Source of the DNA: an uncultured Gemmatimonadaceae bacterium
Lineage (GTDB): Bacteria; Gemmatimonadota; Gemmatimonadetes; Gemmatimonadales; Gemmatimonadaceae
Assembly: GCA_963829055.1 (NCBI GenBank)
Contig: CAWHHI010000016.1
Location: 256,001 to 320,000 of the forward strand
DNA length: 64,000 nt
Reading direction: 5' to 3'
Part shown: in pieces, positions 3-62,484 of the stretch
How positions within the stretch are numbered: the first letter of the stretch is position 1
Layout of the letters: each line of letters begins with the position of its first letter
The notes under the pieces: model-generated
What the model was told of the DNA's origin: nothing
The model's input: the letters and a program-made list of their open reading frames with translations, nothing else
Database searches by the model: none
Program-made: the position numbers and the translations under genes

Positions 3-386
3 GGATGGTACGAGGCGAAGCGCGACGCGCGCCGGGCGGCGTTGGCCGCGCAGGGACTCGTCGTGGAGGAGCCGGTGTCGACAGAGCCGGACATTCTCGA
101 GACGATCCGCGCTCGCGAGGCAGCCGACAAGCTGGGCGACGACGATGGCGAGATCGACGATGCGGATCGCGACAAGTTGTTCCGCGAAGCGGCGGAGGTC
201 GTGATCCAGCATCAGCAAGGCTCGACGTCGCTGCTGCAGCGTCGGCTTGGCGTTGGCTACGGACGCGCGGCGCGGATCATCGATCAGCTGCACGCGGCGG
301 GTATTCTCGGACCGCCTAACGGGTCCAAGCCACGCGAGATTCTGAGCGGGCTCGAGGATCTCGACAGGATTTGCGGGCCACGCTGA
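3..386 (+). CDS. ftsK: DNA translocase FtsK, C-terminal gamma domain (5'-truncated by window)
   Basis: Open frame from position 3; DKLFREAAEVVI...GSTSLLQRRLGVGYGRAARIIDQL..AGILGPPNGSKPREIL is the FtsK gamma winged-helix signature. Confidence 0.95.
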   Translation, partial: GWYEAKRDARRAALAAQGLVVEEPVSTEPDILETIRAREAADKLGDDDGEIDDADRDKLFREAAEVVIQHQQGSTSLLQRRLGVGYGRAARIIDQLHAAGILGPPNGSKPREILSGLEDLDRICGPR

Positions 387-396
387 CCGGCCGAGA

Positions 397-1827
397 TCAG
401 TCGGGTATCGACGCGGCGCCGGACTCTACCGGTCGATCACAGCGGATCGAGAGAGCGACGGCGCGGTCCAGAAGACGCGCGAGCGCCTCTGCCTGGCGGG
501 GCTGACTGTAGCGCGCGATCTCACTCCTGTCGCCCGTGTAGGCGAGTGGCAGGCCGCGTTCCCACGTCCGCAACCATGCTTCGAGCACCGCCGCGATGCC
601 TTCTACCGAGTCTGCGGTGACGCCGGCGCGCGTGCGCTCGAGCAGCGCATCACCCCAACCACCGGGGTCGCTGGGCAACGCAAGAATCGGCCTGCCGGCG
701 TTCAGGTACTCGAACGTCTTCGCGGGAAAGCTGAGGGTGCCCTCGGCCGCGGTTGGTGCGGTGCAGTTGAACAGCACGAGCCCGTCCGCGCCACGTTGCA
801 GGCGCAGGGCATCCGCGGGCGGCAGACGGTCGATGAACACGCATGCGCGGGCCGCGTCAGGGAACCGGCTAAGGCTCGCCTCGAGGGTGCGATCGCATCC
901 GGTACCTGCGAACGTGACCTCGATCGGCGGCGGATTAGTGCCGCGCGCGGCGACCACCCGATCGAGCGCTTCGAAGAACAACTCCGGTCGCTGGTCACCC
1001 GGGTATACGGAGCCCGTGTACGCGAGACGCAAGCGGTCGTGACGTTCCGGCTCGACTAGCGGCTGCTCGGCCGGATCGAAGCCGACCATCACGACTTCTC
1101 CGTCCACCGCATAGGTTCGCTGCACGTAGCCGAGCATCGCCGGTGTGATGGCTCCCGCGGCTGCCGCCTGGCTCATCCACCGTCGATGCTGGCGATCCGC
1201 ATACGGTCGCCACGCTGCGCGACGCTGTCGCTCGAGGTGGAAGCTGTACAGATCGTCGAACTGCGCGACCCAAGGCACACCGGTGACACGGGCGATTTCG
1301 GACCCGACGACGTGCGCGCTCGCCGGCGGGCACAGGCTGCAGATTGCGTCGATCGACTCGTCCCGAATGACGCCGACGCCCGCGTCGACAGCCGCATCCA
1401 CCCAGCCGCGAAACGGATCCGGAAAATCACCGAACGCGGGCGAGAAGAGCGACAGCGCGCGACGCGCGACGCTCCGCGGGGAGAACGAAGTCTCGGTCGC
1501 GTCGTGACGCGTGCTGCCGTCGTTGCTGCGCATCGACGCGTCGTACACGCCGCCCAGCCGCTGATGGAGGCGCCTCAGTGCGTTGTCGCGTGTGCGGTAT
1601 GGAGTGCGAATGACGTTCACACCGGGGATCTCGTCGAGCGCCTGCGGATACGACGCGAGCGTGTAGGCACGGCGATCCTCCGGCGCGATATCGGTCATCC
1701 AGTTCTTGGTGAGAACGACAGGCTGCCATCCGGCCGCCGGCAGATACTTGCACAGCTTCAGCGCACGACGCGCACTGACGTCGTACTGCGGCGGGAACGT
1801 ATAGGTGACGAGGAGAACCTTTCGCAC
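397..1827 (-). CDS. GT4-like glycosyltransferase
   Basis: GTG start at 1827 (VRKVLLVTYTFPP); later YTGSVY and FPAKTFEYLNAGRPIL motifs of GT-B fold enzymes. Confidence 0.85.
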   Translation of the reverse strand: MRKVLLVTYTFPPQYDVSARRALKLCKYLPAAGWQPVVLTKNWMTDIAPEDRRAYTLASYPQALDEIPGVNVIRTPYRTRDNALRRLHQRLGGVYDASMRSNDGSTRHDATETSFSPRSVARRALSLFSPAFGDFPDPFRGWVDAAVDAGVGVIRDESIDAICSLCPPASAHVVGSEIARVTGVPWVAQFDDLYSFHLERQRRAAWRPYADRQHRRWMSQAAAAGAITPAMLGYVQRTYAVDGEVVMVGFDPAEQPLVEPERHDRLRLAYTGSVYPGDQRPELFFEALDRVVAARGTNPPPIEVTFAGTGCDRTLEASLSRFPDAARACVFIDRLPPADALRLQRGADGLVLFNCTAPTAAEGTLSFPAKTFEYLNAGRPILALPSDPGGWGDALLERTRAGVTADSVEGIAAVLEAWLRTWERGLPLAYTGDRSEIARYSQPRQAEALARLLDRAVALSIRCDRPVESGAASIPD

Positions 1828-1862
1828 GCGGCGCGCGCTCCGGCGCTGATCTGGCGACCGCG

Positions 1863-3149
1863 TTAGGCGGGAGTGGGCGCGAGCAGCTGTTCGTCGATGC
1901 CGAGAAACTCGGCGAACCGCCGGCGGAATACGTGCATGCCCAACTCTTCGCGGAGCACCCGTGGGATCGCGTCCGCGGCTCGCGCGTGGAACTCCGCGTC
2001 GGTGGCCGTCGTGCGCAACGCCTCGACAATGACGGCCGCGTCGAGCGAGTGACACGCGACCCCCACGGGCCAGCGTGCGAGAAACCGCGCCGGCGTCGAT
2101 TGCCGCGGTCCGTGAAACAGGATCGGTCGCCCTGCGGCAAGGTAGAGCGACACCTTGTTCGGAAACGATAGCTCGACGCCCGGCCGACACGCTTCGTCGA
2201 ACCAGTAGGGTACGTAGCACACGTCGCAGTCCGACAGAATCGCCACGGCGTCCGTCGTGGAGTGCCAGCCGAGGAATTCGACGCGCGCGGGTCCGGTCGC
2301 GCGCACCTCGAGACTCGCGGCGAGCATGCGCACAATCACGTCGCGGCCGTCGATGCGCCAGCCGATCGTCCCAAGCGCGGACATCAACGCTTCCCACTCA
2401 CGACGCGCGTACAAGCTCCCCGCATACCCAATGACGAACGGTTCGTCCGGGCGCCGCATGCCGGTGGGGCGAACCCATTGCGATTCGGGGAGCCCGTGAA
2501 TCATTGGCGTGCACGGCGTTCCGTACGACTGCTCATACGCCGCCTTCATCTCCGGAGACGCCACCGCAGTGCGGACCGAGCTCCGAACGGCTTCAGCGAA
2601 GCGGCCCATCGTGCGCTCGAGCGCGGCGCCGTCGATGCCCCAGTAGTGCGGCAGGAAGTAGTCGGGCGCGTCCCACACGGTCGTCACCAATGGCACGCCC
2701 ACGCGCTTCGCGAGTCGGGCGGCGACGTTGATCAGCGTCGGATTCGCGAGCGGGATCCAGAGCAACTCCGCCCTCACCTCGCGCGCGAACGTCGCGATCT
2801 GCTCGATGAGCCGCGGGAGGTGGCGACGATCGACGTACGCGTCGAACACGCCGCGCGTGGAGTGCTGCACGCGACGGCCCCATCGATTGAAGCCACGCTC
2901 CGGGACGGCGTCGAGCGTTAGGCGTGGCGTGTGCGCCAGTGTCGCTGGCCACGCACCGGTACCGCCGCCGGGAAGGATCGCGAAGGCAAGTTTGTCCGCG
3001 GGGTAGAGCAGGCAAAGGTCCCGCAGAAACACGCCCCCGACGCCTTCGGGCACCGGCGCCACGGGCGACACGATCAGAATGCGTGGTGCCTGGGAGACGC
3101 TCGCTACGCGCGATGAGTCGCGACCCGACACGACCGACGCCACTGTCAC
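1863..3149 (-). CDS. GT-B fold glycosyltransferase
   Basis: RILIVSPVAP N-terminus, IGYAGSLY, LSFPNKVSLYLAAGRPIL; lies within the glycan cluster. Confidence 0.8.
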   Translation of the reverse strand: MTVASVVSGRDSSRVASVSQAPRILIVSPVAPVPEGVGGVFLRDLCLLYPADKLAFAILPGGGTGAWPATLAHTPRLTLDAVPERGFNRWGRRVQHSTRGVFDAYVDRRHLPRLIEQIATFAREVRAELLWIPLANPTLINVAARLAKRVGVPLVTTVWDAPDYFLPHYWGIDGAALERTMGRFAEAVRSSVRTAVASPEMKAAYEQSYGTPCTPMIHGLPESQWVRPTGMRRPDEPFVIGYAGSLYARREWEALMSALGTIGWRIDGRDVIVRMLAASLEVRATGPARVEFLGWHSTTDAVAILSDCDVCYVPYWFDEACRPGVELSFPNKVSLYLAAGRPILFHGPRQSTPARFLARWPVGVACHSLDAAVIVEALRTTATDAEFHARAADAIPRVLREELGMHVFRRRFAEFLGIDEQLLAPTPA

Positions 3150-4231
3150 GCGAGACGCTCGCCGAGCAGTACGTTCGCCACCGTGTCACTCACGGCAGGC
3201 GCGAGGTACTCCGGTGGCACGACCCAGTTTCTCTCGCGCGTCATCGCCGCCCGGACCGCGCGCGTGATGCGGTCCGGGTCAACGCCAGCGATGATGTTGC
3301 TCCCGCACTCGACCGTTTCGGGTCGCTCCGTGACATCGCGCGTGGTCACGTTCGCGACGCGCAGGATGCAACACTCCTCCTGAACAGTGCCGCTGTCGGT
3401 CAGCACGCAGGCGGCGTCGCGCTCGAGTGCGACGAAGTCGAACAGTCCCAACGGGGGAAGCACACGCAGGCCCGCCACCAGCCCGGTCATGCCGAATGCC
3501 TCGAGACGACTCTTCGTACGGGGATGCATGCTCACGACGATCGGCAACGCATGCTCCTCGCCCACTCGCCGCAGCGCGTCTGCCAGCTGACGTAGCCGCT
3601 CGGGCACATCGACATTCTCGGCTCTGTGTGCCGTGACGAGAAAGTAGCCGCCGCGCTCGACGCCGATACGCGCGTGAACGTCGGACGCGTCGATGCATGG
3701 CTCGTAGTGCCGCAGCACCTCGAGGATCGGATTGCCGGTCACGATCACGCGCTGTGACGCGATCCCTTCGCGCAGCAGGTTCGCGCGGCTTCGCTCCGTA
3801 TAGGGGAGGAGCACGTCACTCGAGTGATCGATGATCCGGCGGTTCACCTCTTCGGGCACGCGATCGTCGAAGCAGCGGTTGCCGGCCTCCATGTGATACA
3901 CCGGTACGCCCATCCGCTTGGCGACAACGGCTGCCAGGCCGCTGTTCGTGTCGCCAAGAATCAGCAACCGGTCTGGCCGGTGCTCCCGAATCGCGCGCTC
4001 GGTGCCCGTCAGTATCTGACCCGCCTGCTCCCCGAACGAGTCCGCGCGCACGCCTAACGAAACGTCAGGCGCGCGGACGTCGAGGTCGCGGAAGAACACG
4101 TCGCTGAGCGACGGGTCGAAGTTCTGGCCCGTGTGCACGAGCACGTGGTCGCACGACGCATCCAGCTTCGGGATGAGCCGTGAGAGGCGGATGATCTCGG
4201 GACGCGTCCCGAGCACGGTCATGACCTTCAT
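3146..4231 (-). CDS. UDP-N-acetylhexosamine 2-epimerase (non-hydrolysing; FnlC/WbjD/Cap5G-like)
   Basis: MKVMTVLGTRPEIIRL, HTGQNFD, HMEAGNRCFD, TDSGTVQEE, TERPE motifs. Confidence 0.92.
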   Translation of the reverse strand: MKVMTVLGTRPEIIRLSRLIPKLDASCDHVLVHTGQNFDPSLSDVFFRDLDVRAPDVSLGVRADSFGEQAGQILTGTERAIREHRPDRLLILGDTNSGLAAVVAKRMGVPVYHMEAGNRCFDDRVPEEVNRRIIDHSSDVLLPYTERSRANLLREGIASQRVIVTGNPILEVLRHYEPCIDASDVHARIGVERGGYFLVTAHRAENVDVPERLRQLADALRRVGEEHALPIVVSMHPRTKSRLEAFGMTGLVAGLRVLPPLGLFDFVALERDAACVLTDSGTVQEECCILRVANVTTRDVTERPETVECGSNIIAGVDPDRITRAVRAAMTRERNWVVPPEYLAPAVSDTVANVLLGERLA

Positions 4232-5313
4232 CGCAACAGCTCGACGCCCTCGTCGGCCGAGTTGCCGGCGAACATCAACTGCTGTCGCGTGAGAAGTCCG
4301 ACGACGTCGTCGTAGCTCATCACCTCGTTACCTGAGCTGTACTCACCGGGCAGCGCCGCCAGTGGCTCGTCGTCACCCTCGTGAAGCTCTGGCAGCACGG
4401 GACGAATGGCGTAGAAGCGACCGCGGTCCACGCTGCGATGGCATTCCTCTTCGGAAATGAGGATCTCATGGACCTTTTCGCCGGGCCGTATGCCCGTCAC
4501 CACTGTCTCGATGTCTCGCGGCCCGACGAGCGCGCGAGCGACGTCGACGACCTTTGCCGACGGGACGCGTGGAATGTACGTCTCTCCGCGACGACCGCCG
4601 CGCATCACGGCGAACACGGTGTCCACCGCCTCCTCGAGCGAGAGCAGGAAGCGTGTCATGTCCGTCGTCGTGATGGTTACTGGACCGCCGCTCCGGATCT
4701 GCTCGTGAAAGAGCGGGATCACCGACCCACGCGACGCGAGCACGTTGCCGTACCTGACGCACACGAAGCGCGTGTCGGGGCACGTGAGATTCGCCGACGT
4801 GAACACGCGCTCCTGGATCGCCTTGGTCATGCCCATGACGTTGACGGGCTTGCAGGCCTTGTCGGTGCTCACGCCGACGACCGTGTCGATCTGCAGTCCA
4901 TTCTCGCGAATGGCCCGAATGATGTTCTCCGGCCCCGTGATGTTCGTCTGGACGGCCTCGTACGGGAAATACTCGCACGTCGGCACCTGCTTGAGCGCGG
5001 CAGCATTCACGACCACGTCCGCGGTGCGCAGCACGGACGCGACGGAGTGGTAGTCGCGCACGTCGCCGATCACGAACGTCAGCAGCTCGTTGAAGTTGCG
5101 GTACACGATCTCGTCGGTCGCGACGACGCGATTCTTGTAGTGCAGCCGCATGTCGTGCTGCTTCGCTTCGTCGCGCGAGAACACGGTGATGCGCTTCGGC
5201 CGGCCCATCTCGCCGCCTAACAGGCGACGACACAGGACCTTGCCGAGGGAGCCGGTGCCCCCGGTGACTACGATATGCTTGCCGTCGAGCGGTCGCGTGC
5301 GTTCGAGATCCAC
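4228..5313 (-). CDS. UDP-GlcNAc 4,6-dehydratase/epimerase (FnlA/WbjB/Cap5E-like)
   Basis: GTG start at 5313; TGGTGSLG, FSRDEAKQ, AAALKQVPTCEYFP, STDKAC.PVNVMGMTKA, VRYGNVLASRGSVIPLF, GIRPGEKVHE. Confidence 0.92.
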   Translation of the reverse strand: MDLERTRPLDGKHIVVTGGTGSLGKVLCRRLLGGEMGRPKRITVFSRDEAKQHDMRLHYKNRVVATDEIVYRNFNELLTFVIGDVRDYHSVASVLRTADVVVNAAALKQVPTCEYFPYEAVQTNITGPENIIRAIRENGLQIDTVVGVSTDKACKPVNVMGMTKAIQERVFTSANLTCPDTRFVCVRYGNVLASRGSVIPLFHEQIRSGGPVTITTTDMTRFLLSLEEAVDTVFAVMRGGRRGETYIPRVPSAKVVDVARALVGPRDIETVVTGIRPGEKVHEILISEEECHRSVDRGRFYAIRPVLPELHEGDDEPLAALPGEYSSGNEVMSYDDVVGLLTRQQLMFAGNSADEGVELLR

Positions 5314-6191
5314 TGATGGTTCCAGGTGTCGTAAGGCGTGGGGTCTGCCGCCAGCTCGGCGACCATGGTCGCCCACGATGGCGGGCGATACCCCGTCGCG
5401 TTCATGAAGCGAGTTGCGTCGAGGGTGCGATCGCAGACGAACGACTCGTCGGCTTCGAGCGTGGTGCCGAGGCCTAACGCATCGTTCACGAGCGTCAGCA
5501 GGTCGTACTTCGCTATCGGTTCGCCAGCAACGTGCCAGACGCCGCGGAGGTCGCGATGGTGCTCGGCGATGTCCGCGAGCACGCGCGAAAGCTCGAGCGT
5601 CGTGAGGCCACTGAACCGCGCGCGCGTGAAGCCGGGAACGGTCTGCCCGCGACGCGACAGGAACCACTCTACCAGCCCGCGCGACGACCCGATCTCGCGG
5701 CCTACCATCGACGTCCGCACCGTCAGGCAGGCGTCGTGATCGACTTCGCCGAGCAGCTTGCTGCGACCGTACAGGTCCTTCGCGTCAGGCACGTCGGCCT
5801 CGGCATAGTTGCCGCGAGCGCCGGAAAACACGCAGTCGGTGCTGAGGTGAATCAGGCGCGCACCGGCTCTGGCGCACCGCGCGGCGAGTCGGTGTGGCAG
5901 CAGCGCGTTCACCGCGATGGTGCCTACGGCATCCTCGGCCTCTCGGCGCTGCTTGACGATTCCCACGGCATTCAGCACGACGTCGGGACGTGCAACGGAA
6001 AACGCGCGCTCGATATCGGCGTCTTGCGACGCGTCCACGCGATCGATGACGCGGCGCTCGTCGAACCACTCGAGACTCGCGTAGTCCGCGTATGGTCGCC
6101 GGACGGCAACGAAGGCTTCCATGCGACCGTCGAGCTCCCGCCACAGGCGGTGACCGAGCATGCCCGCGCCGCCGAGGACGAGCGCCCTCAC
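5268..6191 (-). CDS. RmlD-like NDP-4-keto-6-deoxyhexose reductase (SDR)
   Basis: LGGAGMLG, NAVG, HLSTDCVFSG, YGRSKLLGE (YxxxK), RTS. Confidence 0.9.
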   Translation of the reverse strand: MRALVLGGAGMLGHRLWRELDGRMEAFVAVRRPYADYASLEWFDERRVIDRVDASQDADIERAFSVARPDVVLNAVGIVKQRREAEDAVGTIAVNALLPHRLAARCARAGARLIHLSTDCVFSGARGNYAEADVPDAKDLYGRSKLLGEVDHDACLTVRTSMVGREIGSSRGLVEWFLSRRGQTVPGFTRARFSGLTTLELSRVLADIAEHHRDLRGVWHVAGEPIAKYDLLTLVNDALGLGTTLEADESFVCDRTLDATRFMNATGYRPPSWATMVAELAADPTPYDTWNHQWISNARDRSTASIS

Positions 6192-7501
6192 GTAGCACTC
6201 CGGGAGGCCAGTGTCTCGTACAGTTTGACGACCCGCGGGCGGATCGTGGCGCGATCCGCGAGGTCGTGCACGAGCGCCAGGTTGCGTTCCGCCGCACTGT
6301 CGACGAGCGCGTCGTCCGTCATCGCCCTAACGAGCGCCTGCCCGATCTCGTCAGGGTAGAGATTCCGAGCGAACAGCACGTTCGACTCATCGCGCACGAG
6401 CGGGCGGATCGTGTCGAGCGGCGAGAGCACGGGGAAGGCACCGGTGGCCATTGCCTCGAACATCGAGTTCGGCGTCCCGTCCACCAGCGATGGCGCGAGC
6501 ATCACGCGCGCTCGGCCCATCAACTGCAGGATCTCGTGACGGGGAATCCGCTCATCGATCCGGCACGACGCTTTGATCTCGGGTGGCAGCGCGTGGAACC
6601 ACATGCGCGTCTCGCGCTCCATCGCCAGCATGTGAATCTCGCACGGCGGCAGGCGATCCCAGTTGCGCACCAGCGCCTCGAACACAGGCAGTGCCTTCGA
6701 CCACGGACACTCGTACGCCTTGGGCCAGAGAATCACCGAGCGACTCGACGGCAGACCGCTGGAATATGTGCGGAGCGCGTCGATGTCCACACCGCCGGTA
6801 CCGGGTACCGTGCCGATCGGACACAGTTGCTCGGCGTGGACGCCCATCGCACGCGCGATGTCGAAGTTGATCTGATTGTCACTCACCAAACAGTCCGCGG
6901 CGCGCATGACGGTCGCCACGCGAGACGCACGATCGGTGTCGAAGCGCGCGAGCGCGAGGTCGGATCCGCCGCGCGTCTGCGCGAGCCAGCGGCCGACTGA
7001 TGCCAAGCCGTGATCCTGCCGGGTGTCGTAGTAGAACTCACCAGCGGGATCGATGCCGAGCGTGTGCACGACATCCGGCTTCCAGTCGCGGATCACCTGG
7101 GCGAGCCAGCGCTGCTCGATTGCTCGAGCACTCGAGACAAGCCGAGCATACACGCGCTTCGGCGCGCGCGCGATGCGAGCTGCCGCGTAGAGGCGACGCC
7201 GCGTCTGCGCGTCGAGTCGTCGGGACGTCGTCGCGGTCACGTACGTACGAACCGGCCACTCGTCAGGTGGCACACCTCCGGGCAGCGCGAACAGCCTGAC
7301 GTTGAGCTCCGAGCCGGCGAGGAGATCGATCCACGCGTGCGTGTGCGTACTGTCCGCGGGTCCGACGAATAGCACGCGAGGGCGACCAGGATAGGGGTCG
7401 TCATCGAAGCGTCGGGGCGCAGGCCAGGCGGCGCTCGTGCCCGCTGGGGTGCGAGTCGAGCTCGCGTTATGTCCGGGCACTGTCGCGGACACGGATGTCA
7501 T
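6188..7501 (-). CDS. GT4 glycosyltransferase
   Basis: RVLFVGPADSTHT..W; APSLVDGTPNSMFEAMATG donor-binding motif. Confidence 0.85.
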   Translation of the reverse strand: MTSVSATVPGHNASSTRTPAGTSAAWPAPRRFDDDPYPGRPRVLFVGPADSTHTHAWIDLLAGSELNVRLFALPGGVPPDEWPVRTYVTATTSRRLDAQTRRRLYAAARIARAPKRVYARLVSSARAIEQRWLAQVIRDWKPDVVHTLGIDPAGEFYYDTRQDHGLASVGRWLAQTRGGSDLALARFDTDRASRVATVMRAADCLVSDNQINFDIARAMGVHAEQLCPIGTVPGTGGVDIDALRTYSSGLPSSRSVILWPKAYECPWSKALPVFEALVRNWDRLPPCEIHMLAMERETRMWFHALPPEIKASCRIDERIPRHEILQLMGRARVMLAPSLVDGTPNSMFEAMATGAFPVLSPLDTIRPLVRDESNVLFARNLYPDEIGQALVRAMTDDALVDSAAERNLALVHDLADRATIRPRVVKLYETLASRSAT

Positions 7502-9531
7502 CGCGCACCGTCGGCGATCGCGGCCGTCGCGACGTCGCGGAGCGGCTCGACGGGTGTAGCGTTAGGTGGTAAGCACGCGTCGCCCGCGGTGCCCACCGGC
7601 GCGTCCAGCACCTCGCGGCACCACAGCTCCAGCATCATGAGGAGCCACGGTTCTGACCATCCCGTGTCGCCTCGCCGGAAACGATTCGCGATCGTGGAGA
7701 CGACGTCTGCATCGAGCAGCCCACGGGACGACACCGCACGTGGGTCGAGCGCGTCATCCATGACATCGCGCAACGGACCGCGCAGCCAGGCGTCGAACGG
7801 CATGGCGAAGCCGCGCTTGGGTTGGACGTCGAAGTTCGGCGGCAGCCAGCGTCGACCGACGTCGATCAGTACGCGCTTCGCTCCGGAATCACGGTAGGTG
7901 CGGCCGTAGGGGTCGGCACCGTGGACATCACCGAGCTTGGCCGAGTCGGGCAGCGAGAGCGCCGTGTCTACGACGACTGGATCGAGATACGGAACGCGCA
8001 CCTCGAGCGAGTGAGCCATCGACACGGCGTCGATGTCGCGTAGCAGCTGGTTCGTCAGGTAGCCGCGCGTCGCGAGTGCAGTGACGCGCTCGATCGCTGA
8101 CCCGCGGGCGAGCTCGTCGAGCGGCGCCAGGTCGCGATGGGGCGGGGCACCTGCACCCGCGGCTGCAGCGACACCCGGCGTCAACAACCGTGCAGCGCCC
8201 ACGGGACCGAAGATCTGATACGTCTCACCATACGCGCCGATGAAGCTGCCGCGCCGCCAGCGATGGATCCTGCCACCGCCGCGCCGCCGCAGCAGTCCGT
8301 CGAATGCCTGATGGCGCACCGCGGCCGCGACCATCGACCGCGCGAGGCCGCGCCACGGCTCACGCGCCAGGCGCTCCGTCTCCTGTGCCATCGTGATGAA
8401 CCACGGATAGCCTGCGAACAGCTCGTCGCCGCCGGTACCCGAGACGGCTACCGTCACGTCTCGTCTTGCCGCCAGCGACACGAAGTAGCTGTTCACACCG
8501 TCCACGCTCGGTTGATCGAGCGCGCGCGCGATCGCGGTGATTCGGTCGCGAACATCGTCGCCACGCACGACGGACGTCGTATGTTGCGTCCCGAGGTGGC
8601 GCGCCATCCGCTCGGCGTCACCGCTCTCGTCGATGTCGTCGGCCGCGCCGGCGAAACCGACAGAGAACGTGCGTACCGGCGTGCCTAACGCCTTAGTCAT
8701 GATCGCGACGAGGATCGAGGAGTCGACCCCCCCGCTCAGGAACGCGCCGAGCGGCACGTCGCTCACGAGCTGCAGTCGCGCGGATTCCTCGAGCGCCTCG
8801 GCCACCGCCTCGACATGTTCCGCATACGGCCGGGCACGAAGCCCCGGACGCCGGTCCGTGTCGAGCGCCCAGTAGCGCTCCACGCGCATGGCACCGCGCT
8901 CGACTACCAGTCGGTGACCGGGTAGCAGCGCCTTCACGCCGCCGATCATGGTGCGCGGCTGTAGCACGGAGCCGTACGTGAGCAGCGTGCGCAATGCGGT
9001 GGCGTCGATACGTGCCGCGACGAGCCCGCTCGCGAGCAACGCCTTGAGCTCCGACGCGAACACCAGCCGCCCGCCGGCCTCGGCGTACAGCACCGGTTTG
9101 ATGCCCATGTGATCGCGCGCGAGCACGAAGCGCTCGTGGCCCGGTCCGCGACGCGCATCCCAGAGCGCCAGCGCGAACATGCCGCGCAACCTGGTAACGA
9201 AGTCGTCACCGAATCGCTCGTACAGGCGCAACACGACTTCGGTGTCGGACGTGGAGCGAAACCGCACGCCGCTCGCCTCGAGCACTCGACGCTGCTCGGC
9301 GAAGTTGTACACCTCGCCATTGTACACGATGCGAATGGCTGCGTCGTCGGTGGCCATTGGTTGATGGCCGGCTGCGCTGAGATCGAGAACGGCCAGCCGC
9401 GCCATCCCGAGTGACGCGCTCTCGCCGGCCCAGGTGCCGCTATCGTCCGGGCCGCGATGGCGCATCGCCCCGACCATCGCGTGCAGTGCACGATCGGCGC
9501 GCGTCCCGACGAAGCCGCAGATTCCGCACAT
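7498..9531 (-). CDS. asnB: AsnB-family glutamine amidotransferase (glycan-cluster type)
   Basis: ATG at 9531 gives MCGICG (N-terminal Cys); HRGPDD, GHQPM, YNGEVYN, ARDHMGIKP, FLSGGVDSS, SGTGGDELFAGY, SLEVRVPYLD, KRGF. Confidence 0.93.
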   Translation of the reverse strand: MCGICGFVGTRADRALHAMVGAMRHRGPDDSGTWAGESASLGMARLAVLDLSAAGHQPMATDDAAIRIVYNGEVYNFAEQRRVLEASGVRFRSTSDTEVVLRLYERFGDDFVTRLRGMFALALWDARRGPGHERFVLARDHMGIKPVLYAEAGGRLVFASELKALLASGLVAARIDATALRTLLTYGSVLQPRTMIGGVKALLPGHRLVVERGAMRVERYWALDTDRRPGLRARPYAEHVEAVAEALEESARLQLVSDVPLGAFLSGGVDSSILVAIMTKALGTPVRTFSVGFAGAADDIDESGDAERMARHLGTQHTTSVVRGDDVRDRITAIARALDQPSVDGVNSYFVSLAARRDVTVAVSGTGGDELFAGYPWFITMAQETERLAREPWRGLARSMVAAAVRHQAFDGLLRRRGGGRIHRWRRGSFIGAYGETYQIFGPVGAARLLTPGVAAAAGAGAPPHRDLAPLDELARGSAIERVTALATRGYLTNQLLRDIDAVSMAHSLEVRVPYLDPVVVDTALSLPDSAKLGDVHGADPYGRTYRDSGAKRVLIDVGRRWLPPNFDVQPKRGFAMPFDAWLRGPLRDVMDDALDPRAVSSRGLLDADVVSTIANRFRRGDTGWSEPWLLMMLELWCREVLDAPVGTAGDACLPPNATPVEPLRDVATAAIADGAR

Positions 9532-10529: not shown

Positions 10530-10544
10530 GTGGTGTCTCGATGC

Positions 10545-11906: not shown

Positions 11907-11922
11907 TCGCGTGTCTGTCGGA

Positions 11923-12772: not shown

Positions 12773-12786
12773 CGTCGGCGCGGGAT

Positions 12787-12802: not shown

Positions 12803-12816
12803 GATGAGCCAGAAGC

Positions 12817-14712: not shown

Positions 14713-14726
14713 CAGCAGACGTAGCC

Positions 14727-53629: not shown

Positions 53630-54607
53630 ATGAAGCGCGCCACGTCCATTACCTGGGAACAACTCAAGGTTGGCGCGATGATCATCGTCGCCATCGGAGT
53701 TCTCACACTCGCCATGTTCAAACTCGGCGAAGCGGCGAACCTGTTCGCCAAGCATTATCAACTCGTGGCGCTGTTGCCGAGCGTGAACGGCCTGCGCGTG
53801 GGAGGCTCCGTCACCGTTGCCGGGCAGCTTGCCGGTACCGTGTCGGCGATCGAATTCCTGCCACCTGACGCGGATACGACCCGGAACCTGCGCGTGACGG
53901 TCGAGATCGATCAGTCGCTGCAGCAGCAGGTACGCGAAGACTCGCGCGCGAGGATCCGCACGTTAGGCCTGCTCGGCGACAAGATCGTGGACATCTCGCC
54001 CGGCACGCCGCGTTATGCCGTGCTGCCGCAGAACGACACGCTGCAGGTGGAGACAGCGCTCGACTACGAGGCCGTTCTCGTGCAGGCGAGCGGCGCGGTC
54101 TCCGACATGGTGCAGCTCACGCGCGACCTGCGCGGCATCACGGGCGGCCTCGCGCGCGGCGAGGGTACGGTGGGCCAGCTGCTCACGAACCGCTCGCTGT
54201 ACGATGAGTTGAACGGGACGCTCGCTCGCACGAATACGCTCCTCACGCGCCTCCAGGCGCCTAACGGGAGCTTCGCGAAATTGCTCGACGATCCCGCGAT
54301 GTATCAGAACCTGACCGGTATGATCGGCTCGGTCGACTCACTCGTCCGCCAGATGCGATCGGAGAACGGCACGGTCGGCAAACTGCTCGCCAACGATTCG
54401 TTGTACACGCATCTCGTCGGCATCACGTCGGGGGCGGATTCGCTGCTCAAGCAATTGTCGCACGGCAATGGTCTCGCTTCGAAGATGCTCAACGATCAGC
54501 AGCTCTACGAGCAGCTCACGAAGACGATCACGGACCTGAACGCGATCCTCGCCGACGTGCGGAAGAACCCGAAGAAGTACACGAAGGGTATGATCACCGT
54601 TTTCTAG
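53630..54607 (+). CDS. mlaD: MlaD/MCE-domain protein
   Basis: N-terminal TM helix, GLRVGGSVTVAG..AG.V, TLGLLGDK.VDI.PG, repeated GTVG.LL.D..LY helical tail. Confidence 0.9.
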   Translation: MKRATSITWEQLKVGAMIIVAIGVLTLAMFKLGEAANLFAKHYQLVALLPSVNGLRVGGSVTVAGQLAGTVSAIEFLPPDADTTRNLRVTVEIDQSLQQQVREDSRARIRTLGLLGDKIVDISPGTPRYAVLPQNDTLQVETALDYEAVLVQASGAVSDMVQLTRDLRGITGGLARGEGTVGQLLTNRSLYDELNGTLARTNTLLTRLQAPNGSFAKLLDDPAMYQNLTGMIGSVDSLVRQMRSENGTVGKLLANDSLYTHLVGITSGADSLLKQLSHGNGLASKMLNDQQLYEQLTKTITDLNAILADVRKNPKKYTKGMITVF

Positions 54608-55780: not shown

Positions 55781-56450
55781 ATGCTCAAGGAAACGATGAC
55801 GCGCGCGCCCGCGGACGATGGTACCGTTGCTTCACCTGCCGCGCTCGACGCGGAAACACACGCGCTCGTGCGGCTGGCTGGTATCATCACCGCAGGGAGT
55901 GAGATTCAGATCCGTGCATCGCTCGTCCACGCTGCGGCCGCGTGCCGGCCGGAGTGGGTGGAGGAAGTCGTGCTGCAGTCATATCTGTTCGCCGGGTTCC
56001 CGCGCGCCCTCAACGCCGCACGCGAATGGCGGCGCATTTCCGGACGCTCGGCCCCCGATAGCGATGAGGGAGAAGACTTCGACCAGGCGTCACGCTGGCG
56101 TACCGAAGGGGAGGCCACGTGCGCGATAGTGTACGGTCCGTTCTACGAGCGCTTGCGGCACAACATCCGCGCAGTTGCATCCGGCGCTGGACGCCTGGAT
56201 GATCGTGGAAGGGTATGGCAAAGTGCTCTCGCGCCAGGCACTCGACCTTCGTCGTCGAGAGCTGTGCATCGTGAGCGCGTGCGCGATGGCACGCCAGGAT
56301 CGTCAGCTGCATTCGCACCTGCACGGGGCCAAACACGCCGGGGCGTCGCCCGAAGAAGTGCTCGGTGCGATCAACGCCGTCGCGGACCTGCTTGGTCCGG
56401 ACGACACACGCCGGTATCACCAACTGTTCGCGCGAGTGTTAGGCAGATGA
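55781..56450 (+). CDS. Carboxymuconolactone decarboxylase/AhpD-fold protein (frameshift near 56172)
   Basis: EEVVLQSYLFAGFPRALNA; second frame GYGKVLSR..LD.R.REL......QL.SHL.GA...GAS.EE. Confidence 0.82.
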
Positions 56451-56472: not shown

Positions 56473-57489
56473 GTGTTCATTGATCGTGTGGTGGTTCGCG
56501 TCGAAGCCGGAACGGGTGGGTCGGGCGCGAGCTCGTTCCGCCGCGAGAAGTTCGTTCCCATGGGCGGTCCCGACGGCGGCGACGGCGGCAAGGGCGGAGA
56601 CGTGATCGTGCGGGGGGATGACAACCTCGCGACGCTGCTCGACTACACCTACCGAGACAACTGGACGGCCGAACGCGGCGAGCACGGGATGGGCTCGAAC
56701 AAGACTGGACGCTCGGGCTCGGACGTCGTGCTCCCAGTGCCGCCTGGCACCGTCATTCGCGAAGTCGGAGGCGCGCACCTCGGCGAAATCCTCGCGCACG
56801 GCGACGAGATCATCGTCGCTCGTGGAGGGCGAGGCGGGAAGGGGAACGCATTCTTCGCGACCGCGACGCATCAGTCACCGCGCGAATGGCAGCCAGGCGA
56901 GGAAGGCGAGCAGCGCGCGCTGGAGCTCGAGCTCAAGCTCATTGCGGATGTCGGGCTGGTGGGGAAGCCTAACGCTGGGAAGTCCACACTGCTCTCCGTG
57001 ATCTCGGCCGCGCGCCCGAAGATCGCCGACTACCCCTTCACCACGCTGTCACCCAACCTCGGCGTCGTACAGCTCACCGATGGTCGAACGTTCGTCGTCG
57101 CGGACATTCCGGGCATCATCGAAGGTGCCCATGAAGGGAAGGGCCTTGGCCTCCAGTTCCTTCGCCACGTGGAGCGGACGCGCGTGCTGGCGTTCCTCAT
57201 CCCGATCGACGCCATGGACTGGCAACAGGAATACGACGAGCTGCGACACGAAGTAGCGGCCTACTCCGCCGAGTTGGCCCAGAAGCCTCACTGCGTGGTG
57301 TTCACCAAGATGGACTTGTTAGGCGAGGACTTCGTCCCTCCCATCGAGACCCCAAATGCGTTCGGCTCCTTCGCCATCAGCGCCGCGGCACGTACCGGCC
57401 TCGATACGCTACTCGCCGGTTGGTGGCGCCAACTGCTGGGGATGCGGAAGTCGACCCAACGCCGTGAGGGAAGCGCTCAGCTCCCCTGA
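56473..57489 (+). CDS. obgE: GTPase Obg
   Basis: MFID...V.AG.GG.G..SFRREKFVP.GGPDGGDGG, LELKLIADVGLVGKPNAGKST, YPFTTL.PNLG, DIPG, TKMD. Confidence 0.97.
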   Translation: MFIDRVVVRVEAGTGGSGASSFRREKFVPMGGPDGGDGGKGGDVIVRGDDNLATLLDYTYRDNWTAERGEHGMGSNKTGRSGSDVVLPVPPGTVIREVGGAHLGEILAHGDEIIVARGGRGGKGNAFFATATHQSPREWQPGEEGEQRALELELKLIADVGLVGKPNAGKSTLLSVISAARPKIADYPFTTLSPNLGVVQLTDGRTFVVADIPGIIEGAHEGKGLGLQFLRHVERTRVLAFLIPIDAMDWQQEYDELRHEVAAYSAELAQKPHCVVFTKMDLLGEDFVPPIETPNAFGSFAISAAARTGLDTLLAGWWRQLLGMRKSTQRREGSAQLP

Positions 57490-58523
57490 CTTTCGAATCG
57501 ACGCCCTGGCACTCGCGCTCGCGCCAGGTGTCGGCCCGCGAAAATACCGCGAGCGCACGCAGGGTTTCGGATCCGCCGCTCAGGCATTCGGCGCGACCAT
57601 TCCCGCGGGCCAGCAATCACGTCTTCGCGACGAAGCCGTCCGGGCGGTCGGCCGACGGCGAGCGTTGTGGCGCGCGACTCCTGATGATCGGCGACGCCGA
57701 CTATCCGGCGCCGCTGCTCGACCTCGGCGATCCACCGCCGTTCCTGTTCGTCCTCGGTGAGCTGTCCCGCGTGACGGATCCGGCCGTCGCGATTGTAGGG
57801 ACGCGGCGCGCGACGGCGTACGGAGAACGAGTGACAACGGCGCTGAGCGGCGCTCTCGCAGCCGCAGGCGCGACTGTCGTGAGCGGGATGGCTCGCGGCA
57901 TCGACGCCGCCGCGCACCGCGCCGCGCTGGCGCGCGGCGGCATCACGGTCGCCGTGTTAGGCACCGGCGTCGACGTCGCGTACCCCGTCGGGCACCGATC
58001 GCTACATCGAGCAATCGCGCAGCATGGCGCTGTGATTTCCGAGTTCCCATGCGGAGTGCACGCCCAGCCGGCGTCGTTTCCACGACGGAACCGGATCATT
58101 GCGGCGCTGGCGCAGCTGACGCTCGTCATCGAGGCCGGCATCGGGAGCGGAGCGCTGATCACCGCTGAGCATGCGGCCGATCTCGGGCGAGATGTGGCGG
58201 CCGTTCCCGGCCAGGTCGATTCGCCGCAGAGCGCAGGGTCGAACGCGCTCATTCGCGACGGCGTGCACACCGTGCTCTCGGCGGCGGATGCGCTGTCGCT
58301 GGTCAAGCTCGCGGACCCGGCAACGCGTCGCGACATCACACCGACGCTCCAGGGTGACGAGCGCGCCGTCTGGACGGCGCTCGCCGATGGCGCGACGCCG
58401 ATCGACATCCTGACAGAGCGGGCCGGCCTCACGCCTCGCCGTGCGCTCGCGGCGGTGACGGCGCTCGAGTTGGGCGATCTCATCGAAACGTTGCCCACCG
58501 GCGAGTTGCGGCGACGTCGGTAG
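57464..58523 (+). CDS. dprA: DNA-protecting protein DprA (frameshift near 57650; start approximate)
   Basis: YP..L..L.DPP..L, VAIVGTRRATAYG, VVSGMARGIDAAAH, FPRRNRIIA, EAG..SGALITA, AVPG, C-terminal winged helix. Confidence 0.93.
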
Positions 58524-58603
58524 GCCGAGGGGAGGAGCGGTGGGGCAGTCCGACGCTGGAGTAGGTGCCTAACGATTCCGGTCGGCGAACGTCATCGGTT
58601 CAG

Positions 58604-59038: not shown

Positions 59039-60153
59039 GTGCCGCCTCGCCACGTCTACGTTCACGTTCCGTTCTGCGCTCGTCGCTGCTCCTACTGCGA
59101 CTTCGCCATCGCCGTGCGCCATCGGGTCCCGGCGGATGAGTATGCACGCGCGATCGCCCGTGAGCTCGAGCTCAGGGCGTTAGGCGGCTCCGACGCCACC
59201 GTCGACACGATCTACCTCGGCGGTGGGACGCCCTCGCTGCTCGGACCCGATGGCGTCAGGCGCGTGATCGACATCGTGTCCGAACGCTTCCCGCCGGCAT
59301 CCGGCGCCGAGATCACGATCGAAGCCAATCCCGACGACGTCAACGCCGCGTCGGTAGCGGGATGGCGCGCCGCTGGCGTGAATCGCGTGTCCCTCGGTGT
59401 GCAATCGTTTCATCCGAATGCGCTCGCGTGGATGCACCGCACGCACGGCGCAGATCAGATCACCGTCGCCGCGAATGCGCTGGCGGATGGCGGGATGGAG
59501 AACTGGTCGCTCGATCTCATCTTCGCGCTTCCCGAAGCGCTCGAGCGCGATTGGGCGCGTGATCTCGATGCGGCCATCGCGCTTGCGCCGCCGCACATCT
59601 CGCTCTACGGCCTGACGGTCGAATCGCACACCCCCATCGCGCGCTGGCGAGATCGTGGCGATACCGTCGAGGGCAGCGAGGACGTCTACGAGCGCGAGTA
59701 CCTCCACGCCGACGAAACGCTTCGTGGCGCCGGCTACGCGCACTACGAGGTCTCGAACTTCGGCAAACCGGCCGGACGTCTCGGCACAACAAGAGTTACT
59801 GGACCGGCGCGTCGTACGTCGGTCTTGGTCCGGCCGCTCACGGCTACAATGGCTTCGAGCGGCGCTGGAACGAGCGCGAATACGCGGCGTGGCTCCGCTG
59901 CGTGAACGAAGGCAAGGATCCTCTCGGTGGAGCTGAATCGCTCACGCCCGAGAACCGTACCTCCGAGGAGGTGTACCTTGGCTTACGGACCAGCGACGGT
60001 CTCGCCTTGCTGCCGAACGAGCGGGAAGCCGTTCGACCGTGGGTCGACGCCGGTTGGGGCACTGTCGATTCGGACCGACTTCGCCTCACCGCAACGGGTT
60101 GGCTGCGACTGGACGCACTTGCCGCGTCCTTGACGATGCTCAGAAGTCGTTAG
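59039..60153 (+). CDS. hemW: Radical-SAM heme chaperone HemW (frameshift near 59770)
   Basis: HVYVHVPFCARRCSYCDF, YLGGGTPS, EITIEANP, NRVSLGVQSF, HISLYGLT, HYEVSNF, LGLRT..G. Confidence 0.93.
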
Positions 60154-60166: not shown

Positions 60167-61212
60167 ATGACATTCGCCGAGCTCTCAGAACGCGAACGCC
60201 GCGTGCTCGAAGCCGTCATCCAGAGCTACGTGGAGACGGCGGAGCCCGCTGGCTCGCGCACGATCTCGCGTCGCTTCGGCATCGGTGTGTCGCCGGCGAC
60301 GATCCGGAACACGATGAGCGACCTGGAAGAGAAGGGGTACCTCTTCCATCCGCACACGTCCGCCGGTCGGGTGCCCACGGACATCGCCTATCGCCTGTAC
60401 GTCGACTCGCTCATGCGTGTCGCACCCGATCGCGAGCTCCGACCGCGACCTGCTGGCCGAGCACCTGACGGCCAGCGGTGGGTCGACGATCGAGACGATT
60501 CTGCGCCGCGCCGCCCAGACGCTCTCCGTGCTGACCCAGGAGCTGGGAATGGCGGTCGGCCCACGGCTCGATCAGATCGTGCTTCAGCGGCTCGAGCTCG
60601 TCCGTCTGTCGAGCGAGCGGCTGGTGCTCGTGCTGTCGCTACACGGCGGCGCGGTGCGAACGATCTTCGTCGAGGTCGGTGAGCAGATCGCCGACAACGC
60701 ACTGGCCGAGGTCTCGGTGGTGCTGAACGAGCGCCTTGCCGGCCTGACACTGTCGGAGATCCGCTCGTCACTCGCGGCTCGCCTGCGTGATGCCAAGTCG
60801 ATCGTGGGTGGCCACGAGCTACTGAACATCTTCGTGCAGGAGCGCGAGTCGATCTTCGATGATCCGCTCAAGCGCGACGAGAGTCTCGTGCTCGGTCAAA
60901 CGTCCGTCCTCGCCGAGCAGCCCGAGTTCGCGTCGAGCGACAAGATGCGCCGGCTGCTCGACGCTTACGGAATCGAACGAGCATTCGACGGAGATCCTCC
61001 GCCGGCGCCACGTGAGCCCAGGCGTGTCGATCACGATCGGCAACGAGCACGGCGATCCGCGCTTCGAGAACTTCACGATCGTGACCTCGGAGTACCGTGC
61101 TGGCTCGCTCGCGGGCGTCATCGGCGTGATTGGCCCGACGCGAATGCCGTACGAGAAGGTGATCGCCGTGGTCACCCATGCGTCGAGACTCGTGTCGGAC
61201 CTGCTCGACTGA
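60167..61212 (+). CDS. hrcA: Heat-inducible transcription repressor HrcA (frameshifts near 60425 and 60965)
   Basis: LSERE..VL.AVI..YV.TAEP.GSR, SPATIRN.M.DLE..GYL..PHTSAGRVPT..AYR.YVD, QPEF, GVIGPTRM.YEKVI. Confidence 0.95.
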
Positions 61213-61308
61213 CGCCGCTGCGTTTGAGTAGCACTCAGCGTCACCCAGCCACCAGCACGACCACCCAGCAACAAGCCGCTCAAAATTTCGAATTAGCTTC
61301 ACGGCTCT

Positions 61309-62452
61309 ATGGCTGACTATTACTCCGTCCTCGGCGTCCCGAATACCGCGTCCGACGACGAAATCAAGAAGTCCTATCGCAAGCTCGCGATGCAGTTTCA
61401 CCCCGACCGCAACAATGGGTCGCAGTGAAGCCGAGGAGAAGTTCAAGGAGATCACGGAGGCGTATGACGTCCTCCGCGATCCCAACAAGCGCGCGGCGTA
61501 TGATCGCTACGGTGAAGCCGGACTGCGCGGTGCGGCTGGTGGTGGCGGGTTCCACCACGTGGATCTCTCCGAAGCGCTCGGCATCTTCATGCGCGATTTC
61601 GGCGGCTTCGGTGGACTCGGCGACCTCTTCGGCGCCAGCGGCGGCGGGCGACGTCAGGGCAACAGCCGCACGGGCACGGACGTCAAGTTCACCGTCGAGC
61701 TGACGCTCCAGGAAGTCGCGACCGGCGTTCAGAAGACGTTCAACGCGAAGCTGCTCGATCCGTGCGACCGCTGCGAAGGTTCAGGCGCGGAGCAGGGATC
61801 GAAGCCGCAGCGCTGCACGACGTGTAACGGATCCGGCGAGGTGCGGCGCGCTCAGCGCTCGTTCTTCGGCCAGTTCGTGAGCGTGGCGCCGTGCCCGACC
61901 TGTTCGGGTGAAGGCACCGTCATCGCGGCGCCGTGCAAGAAGTGTCGAGGCGAAGGACGCGTCCGCGGCGATCACTCGATTCCGGTGCAGATCCCGCCCG
62001 GCGTCGCGACCGGGCAGTACATGACGCTGCGCGGCCTCGGCAACGCGGGCCCGCGGGGCGGACCGCGTGGCGACGTGCTCGTCGTCTTCGAGGTCGCGGA
62101 CGATCCTCGCTTCGAGCGCGACGGTGAGGACCTCTACTGCGAGGTGCTGGTGTCGTATCCGCAGCTCGTGTTAGGCGCGGACGTGGAAGTACCGGCCGTG
62201 ACGACGAACGTCTCGCTGCGCGTTCCGCCCGGTACGCAGAGCGGACAGGTGTTCAACGTTCGTGGCCGCGGACTTCCGCGCGTGAACGCGTCCGGCGTCG
62301 GCGACCTGCACGTCCGCGTGCAGCTCTGGACGCCCGACTCCGTCACGCGCGAGGAGGAGGCGTTGCTGCGGAAGCTGGCCGAGACGCAGCAGACGCCACA
62401 GTCGCGCGAGAAGGGGTTCTGGACGCGCATGAAGGAAGCGCTCGGCGCCTAA
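61309..62452 (+). CDS. dnaJ: Chaperone DnaJ (frameshift near 61425)
   Basis: DYYSVLGV...[18 protein letters not shown] domain; G/F region; four CxxCxGxG repeats. Confidence 0.97.
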
Positions 62453-62484
62453 CGCGTGGGTCGCCTGACAGCAGTGAACGCTCC

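Follow-up and report, generated by a model that had tools for sequence, protein, structure and literature searches.

The stretch analysed here, called the window, is a 64-kb portion (positions 256,001 to 320,000 of contig CAWHHI010000016.1, G000:C16:256001-320000) of the genome assembly of an uncultured Gemmatimonadaceae bacterium (GCA_963829055.1, hereafter G000; 7.78 Mb in 20 contigs, 66.5% G+C, with an estimated completeness of 86% and contamination of 3.95%). It carries recA, a split alaS, dprA, obg, dnaJ, hrcA, genes for asparagine synthases, and a long run of glycosyltransferase genes, and the closest RecA sequences in public genomes come from Gemmatimonadales and Gemmatimonadaceae assemblies (81-90% identity). 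Scattered through the window is a short word, GCCTAACG, built on the core hexamer CCTAAC. This word is hyper-abundant in the whole genome, overrides codon preference, keeps its copies apart from one another, and has the same letters as the core of the integron recombination sites of its own lineage.

Distribution of the word in the window

We counted 53 copies of the core in the window (plus strand 25, minus strand 28), whereas 100 dinucleotide-preserving shuffles of the window contain on average 5.72 copies (standard deviation 2.70, maximum 16) and none reaches 53. The over-representation and the site positions reported in the initial annotation are thus borne out, although several of its minus-strand starts are one base off, and the contexts of the sites agree with its split of the base after the core (43 CCTAACG, 9 CCTAACA, and 1 CCTAACC) and with the frequent preceding G, present at most sites. 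The full 8-mer accounts for 29 of the 53 sites (17 plus, 12 minus). Predicted genes contain 47 of the sites, 23 of which are antisense G-TTA-GG, and the flanks are unrelated from site to site, so that we are dealing with a short word and not with a repeat element. The largest word-free gap, from 10544 to 16142 (5.6 kb), contains recA. The sites listed below come from a search for CCTAAC matches and their context, and sharing among congeners comes from the alignment of these to window positions 16001-36000.

314-321, plus strand, perfect GCCTAACG
1861-1868, minus strand, perfect GCCTAACG; the TAA/TAG within terminates open reading frames on both strands
2916-2923, minus strand, perfect GCCTAACG
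4052-4059, plus strand, perfect GCCTAACG
5215-5222, plus strand, variant GCCTAACA
5472-5479, plus strand, perfect GCCTAACG
6325-6332, plus strand, variant CCCTAACG
7560-7567, minus strand, variant ACCTAACG
8683-8690, plus strand, perfect GCCTAACG
9840-9847, plus strand, variant ACCTAACG
10543-10550, plus strand, perfect GCCTAACG; final site ahead of the 5.6-kb word-free gap with recA
16141-16148, plus strand, variant CCCTAACG; ACCTAACG in G003 and G004
17874-17881, plus strand, perfect GCCTAACG in G000 only; CGCTCGCx in congeners
18348-18355, minus strand, perfect GCCTAACG, common to G001, G002, and G005
18597-18604, plus strand, perfect GCCTAACG, common to G001, G002, G004, and G005; G003 unaligned here
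18839-18846, minus strand, perfect GCCTAACG in G000 only
20648-20655, plus strand, perfect GCCTAACG, common to all five congeners
21619-21626, minus strand, perfect GCCTAACG in G000 only
23505-23512, minus strand, perfect GCCTAACG; the TAG within is the stop codon of gene 21594-23510
24591-24598, plus strand, variant ACCTAACG
25760-25767, minus strand, variant GCCTAACA
26458-26465, plus strand, perfect GCCTAACG, common to G001, G002, and G005; GCCTGACG in G003 and G004
29127-29134, minus strand, variant GCCTAACA; TTA here where congeners have CTC/CTG Leu
29289-29296, minus strand, variant CCCTAACG
29349-29356, minus strand, variant GCCTAACC
30549-30556, plus strand, perfect GCCTAACG, common to all five congeners
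31694-31701, minus strand, perfect GCCTAACG, common to G001, G002, and G005
32003-32010, minus strand, variant GCCTAACA
32966-32973, plus strand, perfect GCCTAACG, common to G001, G002, and G005
34267-34274, minus strand, variant ACCTAACG
34989-34996, plus strand, variant CCCTAACG
39640-39647, minus strand, perfect GCCTAACG
40363-40370, minus strand, variant ACCTAACG
41506-41513, plus strand, perfect GCCTAACG
42540-42547, minus strand, perfect GCCTAACG
43477-43484, minus strand, variant GCCTAACA
45120-45127, plus strand, variant CCCTAACG
46557-46564, plus strand, perfect GCCTAACG
46953-46960, minus strand, variant ACCTAACG
47608-47615, minus strand, perfect GCCTAACG
49025-49032, minus strand, variant ACCTAACG
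50520-50527, minus strand, variant CCCTAACG
52454-52461, plus strand, variant CCCTAACG
53961-53968, minus strand, perfect GCCTAACG
54259-54266, plus strand, perfect GCCTAACG
56437-56444, minus strand, variant GCCTAACA
56967-56974, plus strand, perfect GCCTAACG
57317-57324, minus strand, variant GCCTAACA
57955-57962, minus strand, variant GCCTAACA, within dprA
58567-58574, plus strand, perfect GCCTAACG
59178-59185, minus strand, perfect GCCTAACG
62169-62176, minus strand, variant GCCTAACA
62447-62454, plus strand, perfect GCCTAACG; the TAA within is the stop codon of the dnaJ-like gene 61415-62452

Genome-wide excess of a signal acting on DNA

On both strands of G000 together, there are 7103 copies of CCTAAC and 5004 of GCCTAACG. 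Markov models predict 131 (order 1), 102 (order 2), or 257 (order 3) copies of the 8-mer, an excess of 20- to 50-fold, and the most over-represented 5-mer of the genome is CCTAA (z 101). Models of higher order, originally suggested as a check, predict 2916 (order 4) and 4755 (order 5) copies and therefore bring the ratio of observed to expected copies (O/E) near 1; this is no refutation, because the word accounts for 7103 of the 7392 genomic CCTAA and such models are trained on the word itself. The same self-training explains why the word does not appear in a maximal-order scan. By contrast, shuffling synonymous codons within predicted genes (6213 crude gene calls, covering 72% of the assembly) yields 150 ± 11 copies of the 8-mer for 3157 observed; the excess thus stays at 21-fold in the second suggested check, a conservative value since the shuffles retain the rare codons supplied by the word. 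Core density ranges between 0.75 and 1.22 per kb in all 20 contigs (genome mean 0.91 per kb), and in six congeners, each assembled independently, copy numbers range from 2501 to 5112, so that the word is not an assembly artefact. The core is preceded by G (weight 0.79) or A (0.12) and followed by G (0.90) or A (0.07), and nothing is conserved in the flanks of the genomic copies beyond codon periodicity.

Predicted genes contain 4882 of the 7103 core sites and the remaining 2221 lie outside them. Within genes the core is read in every way that the code allows: as sense CCT-AAC (1290 sites) and C-CTA-AC (767), as antisense G-TTA-GG (1850) and GTT-AGG (511), and with stop codons (464). Sense and antisense sites relative to transcription are nearly balanced (2315 and 2567), and sites are evenly distributed along gene length. 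The imprint on codon usage is strong: 1853 of the 2765 TTA codons lie inside the word as G-TTA-GG, and 19-25% of the [Ala/Pro/Thr/Ser]-Leu-Gly tripeptides are written NCG-TTA-GGC, while TTA makes up 1.6% of Leu codons. Likewise, 1299 of 3349 Pro-Asn dipeptides (39%) are written CCT-AAC, and the O/E of Pro-Asn itself is 1.39 in G000 for 0.97 and 1.24 in two relatives (small samples).

The lack of strand skew noticed in the window extends to the whole genome. Bins with a GC skew above 0.02 hold 224 plus-strand and 213 minus-strand sites and bins with negative skew 258 and 246 (Spearman -0.18), and we found no link between the orientation of the word and gene strand in G000. Since orientation is linked neither to skew nor to gene strand and sense sites are about as numerous as antisense ones, readings at the RNA or protein level are excluded, as is any Chi- or KOPS-like polarity. 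The force on the word acts on DNA, forcing rare codons into genes. Two more specific ideas were tried and discarded: hidden-stop or translation effects, given that the word is found in all frames and both orientations, and primase sites, given that CTA is common by itself (54,354 copies). As a separate compositional feature, CTAG is strongly depleted across G000 (3962 observed, 13,660 expected, O/E 0.29).

Mutual exclusion and tolerated variants

Neighbouring sites keep their distance. Gaps of at most 50 bp represent 1.3% of all gaps (4.5% expected under a Poisson distribution) and those of at most 200 bp 7.8% (16.8% expected), and the pair correlation climbs from 0.33 (0-100 bp) to 0.54 (100-200 bp), 0.80 (200-300 bp), and ~0.93 (300-500 bp) before reaching ~1 beyond 500 bp, a course described by a curve fitted by hand, 1-exp(-d/175 bp). 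It is the same for like and opposite orientations, so the exclusion is orientation-blind, and extends to ~250 bp. Site-specific deletion between copies was rejected as its cause because direct and inverted pairs are excluded equally.

The exclusion also reveals which sequences count as the word. Among one-letter variants, ACCTAACG (827 copies, O/E 13-17), CCCTAACG (428), GCCTAACA (435), GCCTAACC (112), and GCATAACG (583) are enriched in G000, and all five are depleted near perfect sites (pair correlation 0.28-0.51 at 0-100 bp), whereas non-enriched one-off words and reversed control words show no exclusion there (0.95-1.18). The enriched variants therefore count as the same signal as the perfect word. 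One-letter deviations cluster at the first and last letters, and one-off variants of the core that retain TAA have just 9-27 copies each, against 5004 for the perfect word. One signal per ~200 bp is thus enough and sites are not independent of each other, which argues against a purely local biased repair.

Conservation, turnover, and phylogenetic spread

Five congeners align to window positions 16001-36000 with ~76% nucleotide identity. Conservation at orthologous sites, another check suggested at the outset, is found in them: G001, G002, and G005 each keep 7 of 11 perfect sites intact for a background near 14.5% (14.3-14.8% of all 8-mers; the binomial P of 3e-4 applies to one genome, as the three are not independent), and G004 and G003 keep 3 of 11 and 2 of 8, respectively. 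Sites specific to one lineage are typically TTA where congeners have CTC or CTG Leu. We compared G000 across genera with two other high-density genera over 172 aligned segments (54,006 residues, 61% identity). In either genome, ~20% of the peptide positions able to spell the word synonymously do so, and site sharing is mildly above baseline (11/36 against 70/344, P 0.20; 11/25 against 61/304, P 0.01). The word is maintained within the genus and turned over between genera.

Among 201 genomes of the family, copy number is graded and patchy, from ~5 to 7821, and ranges from 66 to ~4100 within one genus and from 173 to 1991 within another. In a survey of the phylum (221 genomes), mild enrichment beyond the family is limited to one genus (579-1061 copies). 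All of the other 170 outside-family genomes have at most 100 copies, except two more of that genus, whose counts do not exceed the control. Only part of the Gemmatimonadaceae is strongly enriched, in a graded and patchy manner. Unpublished genomes (G013, G051, G052, G150, G253, G280, and G350) were counted in these family and phylum tallies only. Match listings of relatives hinted at strand-skewed stretches, which we rejected since the loci themselves carry both strands.

DNA nearly identical to the window occurs in 20 soil, rhizosphere, and sediment sequencing runs of 15 studies, and contigs from four of these runs cover the stretch at 97-99% identity. None of the 40 listed differences, out of 821, falls in the core hexamer (0.24 expected).

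Identity with the integron core site

The initial annotation had not recognised the word as a described motif, but it is the integron core site. The R box of attC and attI sites has the consensus RYYYAAC paired with GTTRRRY and is cleaved between the A and C of AAC (PMC5027507), and GCCTAAC/GTTAGGC fits this consensus exactly. The tolerated end variants keep a purine at the first position, and their complement accordingly ends in a pyrimidine. GCATAACG (O/E 4-8) carries a change at an inner position and is excluded like the end variants, yet it lies outside GTTRRRY.

The attC sites of the lineage itself, which begin with GCCTAAC(A/G) and end with CGTTAGGC, use the same core. In low-density genomes of a sister family, most copies of the word share one orientation and recur every 500-650 bp (40 of 65 copies in G021). 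The G021 copies are the 3' ends (CGTTAGGC) of ~97-nt imperfect palindromes that start with GCCTAAC 90-103 nt upstream and fold at about -25 kcal/mol, and their array adjoins an integrase fragment; it is a chromosomal integron with classical attC sites. A giant repeat gene, considered as another source of these same-strand arrays, was rejected in view of the lack of tandem repeats and of any open reading frame of at least 600 amino acids. Arrays with the same attC core exist in G019. The complete genome G057 (four replicons, 4469 copies) has an intact integron integrase gene (IntI) and a canonical array of ~18 kb, in which the attC sites carry the full 8-mer on both arms; ordinary dispersed copies begin across IntI. 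This array, on a secondary replicon (G057:C2:837001-877000, L156-L157), has 97-nt attC sites with two alternating arm types and directly abuts word-bearing DNA. In 200 kb of the low-density genome G008 there are 13 core sites, of which 6-7 are at most 17 kb away from IntI, and most of the copies checked in low-density relatives are in cassette arrays.

G000 has an IntI-like gene of its own (C20:208008-208985, minus strand; TIGR02249, 265.7 bits for a threshold of 265). It is followed in the same direction by ~12 small genes (G000:C20:197000-209000), each ending at or just before CGTTAGGC, and a common attC arm is recognisable in three of these units only. Folded attC structure is seen only in these ~12 units and in the G021, G019, and G057 arrays. 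The dispersed copies show no L box, paired R'', extra hairpin stability, or cassette structure, attC-like pairs are in no clear excess in G000 (82 for 58 in a control arrangement), and the folding energies of flanking sites are similar to background (-24.3 ± 5.1). Among consensus-allowed purine-to-purine variants, GTCTAACG (24 copies), GCTTAACG (24), and GCCCAACG (254) are not enriched. That the word and the attC core are identical by chance is unlikely (~1e-3 by our own estimate, before allowing for the many motifs that could have been matched). We found no precedent for genome-wide spread of an integron core site within the integron literature covered by our survey.

Candidate readers

The initial annotation had suggested looking for genes, methyltransferases or ComP/PilE-like ones, whose presence tracks the enrichment, and in a panel of 49 genomes of the family (24 of high and 25 of low density) none of the nine candidate readers does so. 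ComEC occurs in 47 genomes (all 24 high-density and 23 of the 25 low-density ones), and the ComEA-type HHH_3 domain and PilM in all 49 (25 of 25 low-density ones each). The three are also present in G000, whose window encodes DprA and RecA. A pilin-like gene has matches in all 49 genomes, at orthologue level in G001 only. Counting matches above the cut-off of TIGR02249, IntI is present in 33 genomes (15 of 24 high-density, 18 of 25 low-density; Fisher P 0.55), although metagenome assemblies often miss integrons. RecC occurs in 4 of the 49 and is missing from G000 and from 23 of the 24 high-density genomes. G000 also contains an AddAB-like pair of PD-(D/E)XK nuclease domains.

As for methylases, we found no match in G000 for Pfam C5 methylase, N6_N4_Mtase, or Vsr, at its completeness of 86%, nor for PF02384 (N6_Mtase) in a direct search of the frameshifted assembly. 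Frameshifts probably hid the last, given that G000 encodes an Eco57I/MmeI-type N6-adenine methylase followed by an SNF2 helicase of ~760 amino acids (G000:C8:73500-79100; in G001, L141:3141-8596). The methylase, much frameshifted in G000, is intact (1060-1137 amino acids) in four relatives, and the intact G001 protein weakly matches PF02384 (E 4.8e-8). This methylase and helicase pair is present in all 49 genomes whatever their word density and gives the impression of a vertically inherited core module with an epigenetic or defence role. A swap of methylase specificity was rejected, the identity profiles of the four orthologues being flat. A D12 methylase, also frameshifted in G000, is found in three of five relatives (G001, G066, and G124, not G014 or G068) without relation to density.

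The original idea of a lineage-specific signal at the DNA level, spread by selection or a conversion-like drive, thus agrees with the codon override, the conservation, the absence of skew, and the restricted spread. As for the roles then named, an uptake-like one fits best, and a methylation site gains no support, neither of the two methylases found tracking density. A restriction-modification target fits no better, because the word is enriched instead of avoided and, again, no methylase follows it.

Comparison with other hyper-abundant words

The uptake signal sequences (USS) of Pasteurellaceae and the DNA uptake sequences (DUS) of Neisseriaceae are the most similar systems: short non-palindromic words present about once per kb, in tens- to hundreds-fold excess and inside genes at a cost in codons, with even spacing, no orientation bias, and a strict core with softer ends, one copy being bound per fragment in either orientation (PMC1939737). 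The Gemmatimonadaceae word differs from them in its patchiness within one family, in the lack of a detected ComP-type receptor, of any excess of inverted pairs, and of an alternative dialect in the low-density relatives sampled, and in its coincidence with the integron core. Neisseriaceae DUS vary as dialects, and we know of no coincidence with an integron core for either USS or DUS.

The cyanobacterial highly iterated palindrome HIP1 (GCGATCGC) is also comparable, as an octamer present up to once per gene, 15- to 300-fold over-represented, conserved, and with deviations at its end letters (PMC5861425, PMC4390886, PMC13756078). Cyanobacteria have alternate HIPs (PMC4390886), and the function of HIP1, long obscure, is now linked to transformation (PMC5861425, PMC4390886, PMC13756078; 10.1101/2024.09.10.611283). 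HIP1 is, however, a palindrome tied to two orphan methylases, whereas GCCTAACG is not self-complementary and no methylase tracks it. With the attC/attI core the word shares its letters (consensus in PMC5027507), but its ~5000 copies are isolated, stand in ordinary genes without hairpin, L box, or cassettes, and IntI does not track them.

A proposed transformation-linked drive and its alternatives

We favour, with a probability of about 0.4, a transformation-linked drive of GCCTAACG similar to that of DUS and USS, with a specificity that matches integron cassette capture. The word would be a self-propagating tag read on DNA: in natural transformation, fragments that bear it would be favoured at uptake or integration, alleles that gain it by point mutation would be over-transmitted, and the word would spread in this way through ordinary genes by molecular drive, a process put forward for USS and DUS as well. 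If one copy per fragment suffices, a second one within ~200 bp would gain nothing and decay, leaving an orientation-blind exclusion zone. The specificity would derive from the arm of the attC R box, with a reader that probably arose for the capture of cassettes present in environmental DNA; candidates are an uptake or processing factor adapted to attC cores and the integron integrase itself, working on single strands as they enter the cell. Chromosomal integrons are described as recruiting cassettes from single strands acquired by transformation (PMC12614218). A further step, that cassette capture and genome-wide self-recognition are one system, with either IntI acting on the whole chromosome (helping to join incoming strands, or using thousands of inbuilt landing pads for cassettes) or uptake tuned to attC cores, by which cells would gather gene cassettes out of soil DNA, is a tentative and rather doubtful extension. 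A bias in transmission would more plausibly account for thousands of near-worthless sites placed against codon preference than selection acting site by site.

Several observations weigh against such a drive. The uptake-related genes do not discriminate, ComEC, HHH_3, and PilM being as common in low-density relatives, and ComP_DUS (PF16732) exceeds its cut-off in 1 of the 49 panel genomes, a low-density one, and in none of the 24 high-density genomes. IntI presence has no link to density either, and in the densest genus the gene has a frameshift in G014, is truncated by the end of a contig in G214, and was not detected in G099. No replacement word was found in 200 kb each of the low-density genomes G068 and G008, and close inverted pairs, or inverted pairs at gene ends, are not in excess in G000. 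The exclusion length of ~175 bp (hand fit) is shorter than the kb-scale recombination tracts of model competent species. Finally, our literature searches turned up no paper that connects Gemmatimonadota to natural transformation or to uptake sequences, and none of the titles on DNA uptake or over-representation in the phylum was relevant. As a term of its own, the word appears in a single, unrelated paper; the exclusion and cross-exclusion, the phylogenetic limits, the negative tests of candidates, and the integron identity are new.

The best of the alternatives, though an unlikely one, is that the integron integrase itself reads dispersed R-box half-sites, used as attG-like landing pads, as IntI decoys, or as entry points for joining incoming strands. 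The exact fit to RYYYAAC/GTTRRRY, with end variants that keep R first and Y last, the use of the same 8-mer in the attC sites of the lineage, and the G000 IntI-like gene with its adjoining array all favour it, but it has to contend with an integrase that does not follow density and is degraded or missing in the densest genus, with dispersed copies devoid of attC structure, and with the lack of enrichment of the consensus-allowed R-to-R variants. Moreover, landing pads in essential genes would be harmful, and conversion should remove cleaved sites instead of adding to them.

Somewhat less probable still is an abundant sequence-specific chromosomal protein, of the nucleoid or organising kind, that binds the word, each site being under ordinary selection. 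The orientation-blind exclusion and the equivalence of variants would fit a protein that prefers some variants to others and occupies a footprint or domain of ~200 bp, the word is conserved within the genus, and HIP1, its closest cyanobacterial analogue, has been argued to act in chromosome structure (PMC5861425). Yet selection on each of ~7000 sites would have to outweigh the cost of rare codons, site positions show almost free turnover among genera, the match to the attC core is left unexplained, and we have no candidate protein.

We consider improbable a methylation-linked biased repair as in the model of Elhai for HIP1, in which the core would be methylated and near-matches converted to the word. 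Deviations cluster at the first and last letters as they do for HIP1 (PMC4390886), and the Eco57I/MmeI-type methylase with its SNF2 helicase is present throughout the panel. However, it is equally so in low-density genomes and without a swap in specificity, the D12 methylase is patchy, the G000 searches for Vsr, C5, N6_N4, and PF02384 were negative, and local repair predicts independent sites, contrary to the mutual exclusion.

Least credible of all is a Chi-like signal that tames an AddAB helicase-nuclease and shields the cell's own DNA: Chi sites are short, non-palindromic, and over-represented like the word, and an AddAB-like PD-(D/E)XK pair is present, but the word shows no replichore or gene-strand skew, exceeds by far the excess and density familiar for Chi, is not G-rich as Chi sites are, and coexists with an absence of RecC in G000 and nearly all high-density genomes. 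The low-density G068 (L030-L039, G068:C1:1000001-1200000) is one of the four genomes with RecC, and its top 7- and 8-mers include GCTGGTG, TGCTGGTG, and GGTGGTGG, which resemble the Chi of E. coli.

Hyper-abundant genomic words are few (USS, DUS, HIP1) and each of them opened work on self versus foreign DNA; this one occurs in an abundant, barely cultured soil phylum, with a strength graded between sister genera. If the link with the integron core is causal, it would join the question of what drives such words with that of how integrons find and recruit cassettes. Both would be testable in one organism; G057 combines thousands of copies with an intact IntI and a canonical array. The word may also be needed on constructs for transforming Gemmatimonadaceae.

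Assembly errors and foreign DNA

Conserved genes are split across frames in G000, including alaS (15801-18397). At window positions 24569, 24746, 25321, 25377, 26129, 26371, 26709, and 26720, sequencing runs of four studies are mostly one base shorter than the assembly: the base is absent from all four runs at six of the eight places and, at 26709 and 26720, from the three runs that cover them. The assembly thus contains single-base indel errors, and apparent pseudogenes in it are not to be trusted.

Core density is uniform along the genome except in the 3% of 10-kb windows that are compositionally most atypical (3.4 sites per 10 kb against 9.4), and the word can serve as a marker to bin Gemmatimonadaceae genomes and to detect chimeric or foreign sequence in them. 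Two contig ends, C6:1-50000 and C11:1-40000 of G000, are nearly word-free, with 3 and 5 core sites per 50 kb for a mean of 46. They probably represent foreign or chimeric sequence within the assembly, and they serve as an internal negative control. A second set of housekeeping proteins is encoded there (FtsK, DAHP synthase, and chorismate synthase), which share only 46-56% identity with their counterparts elsewhere in G000.

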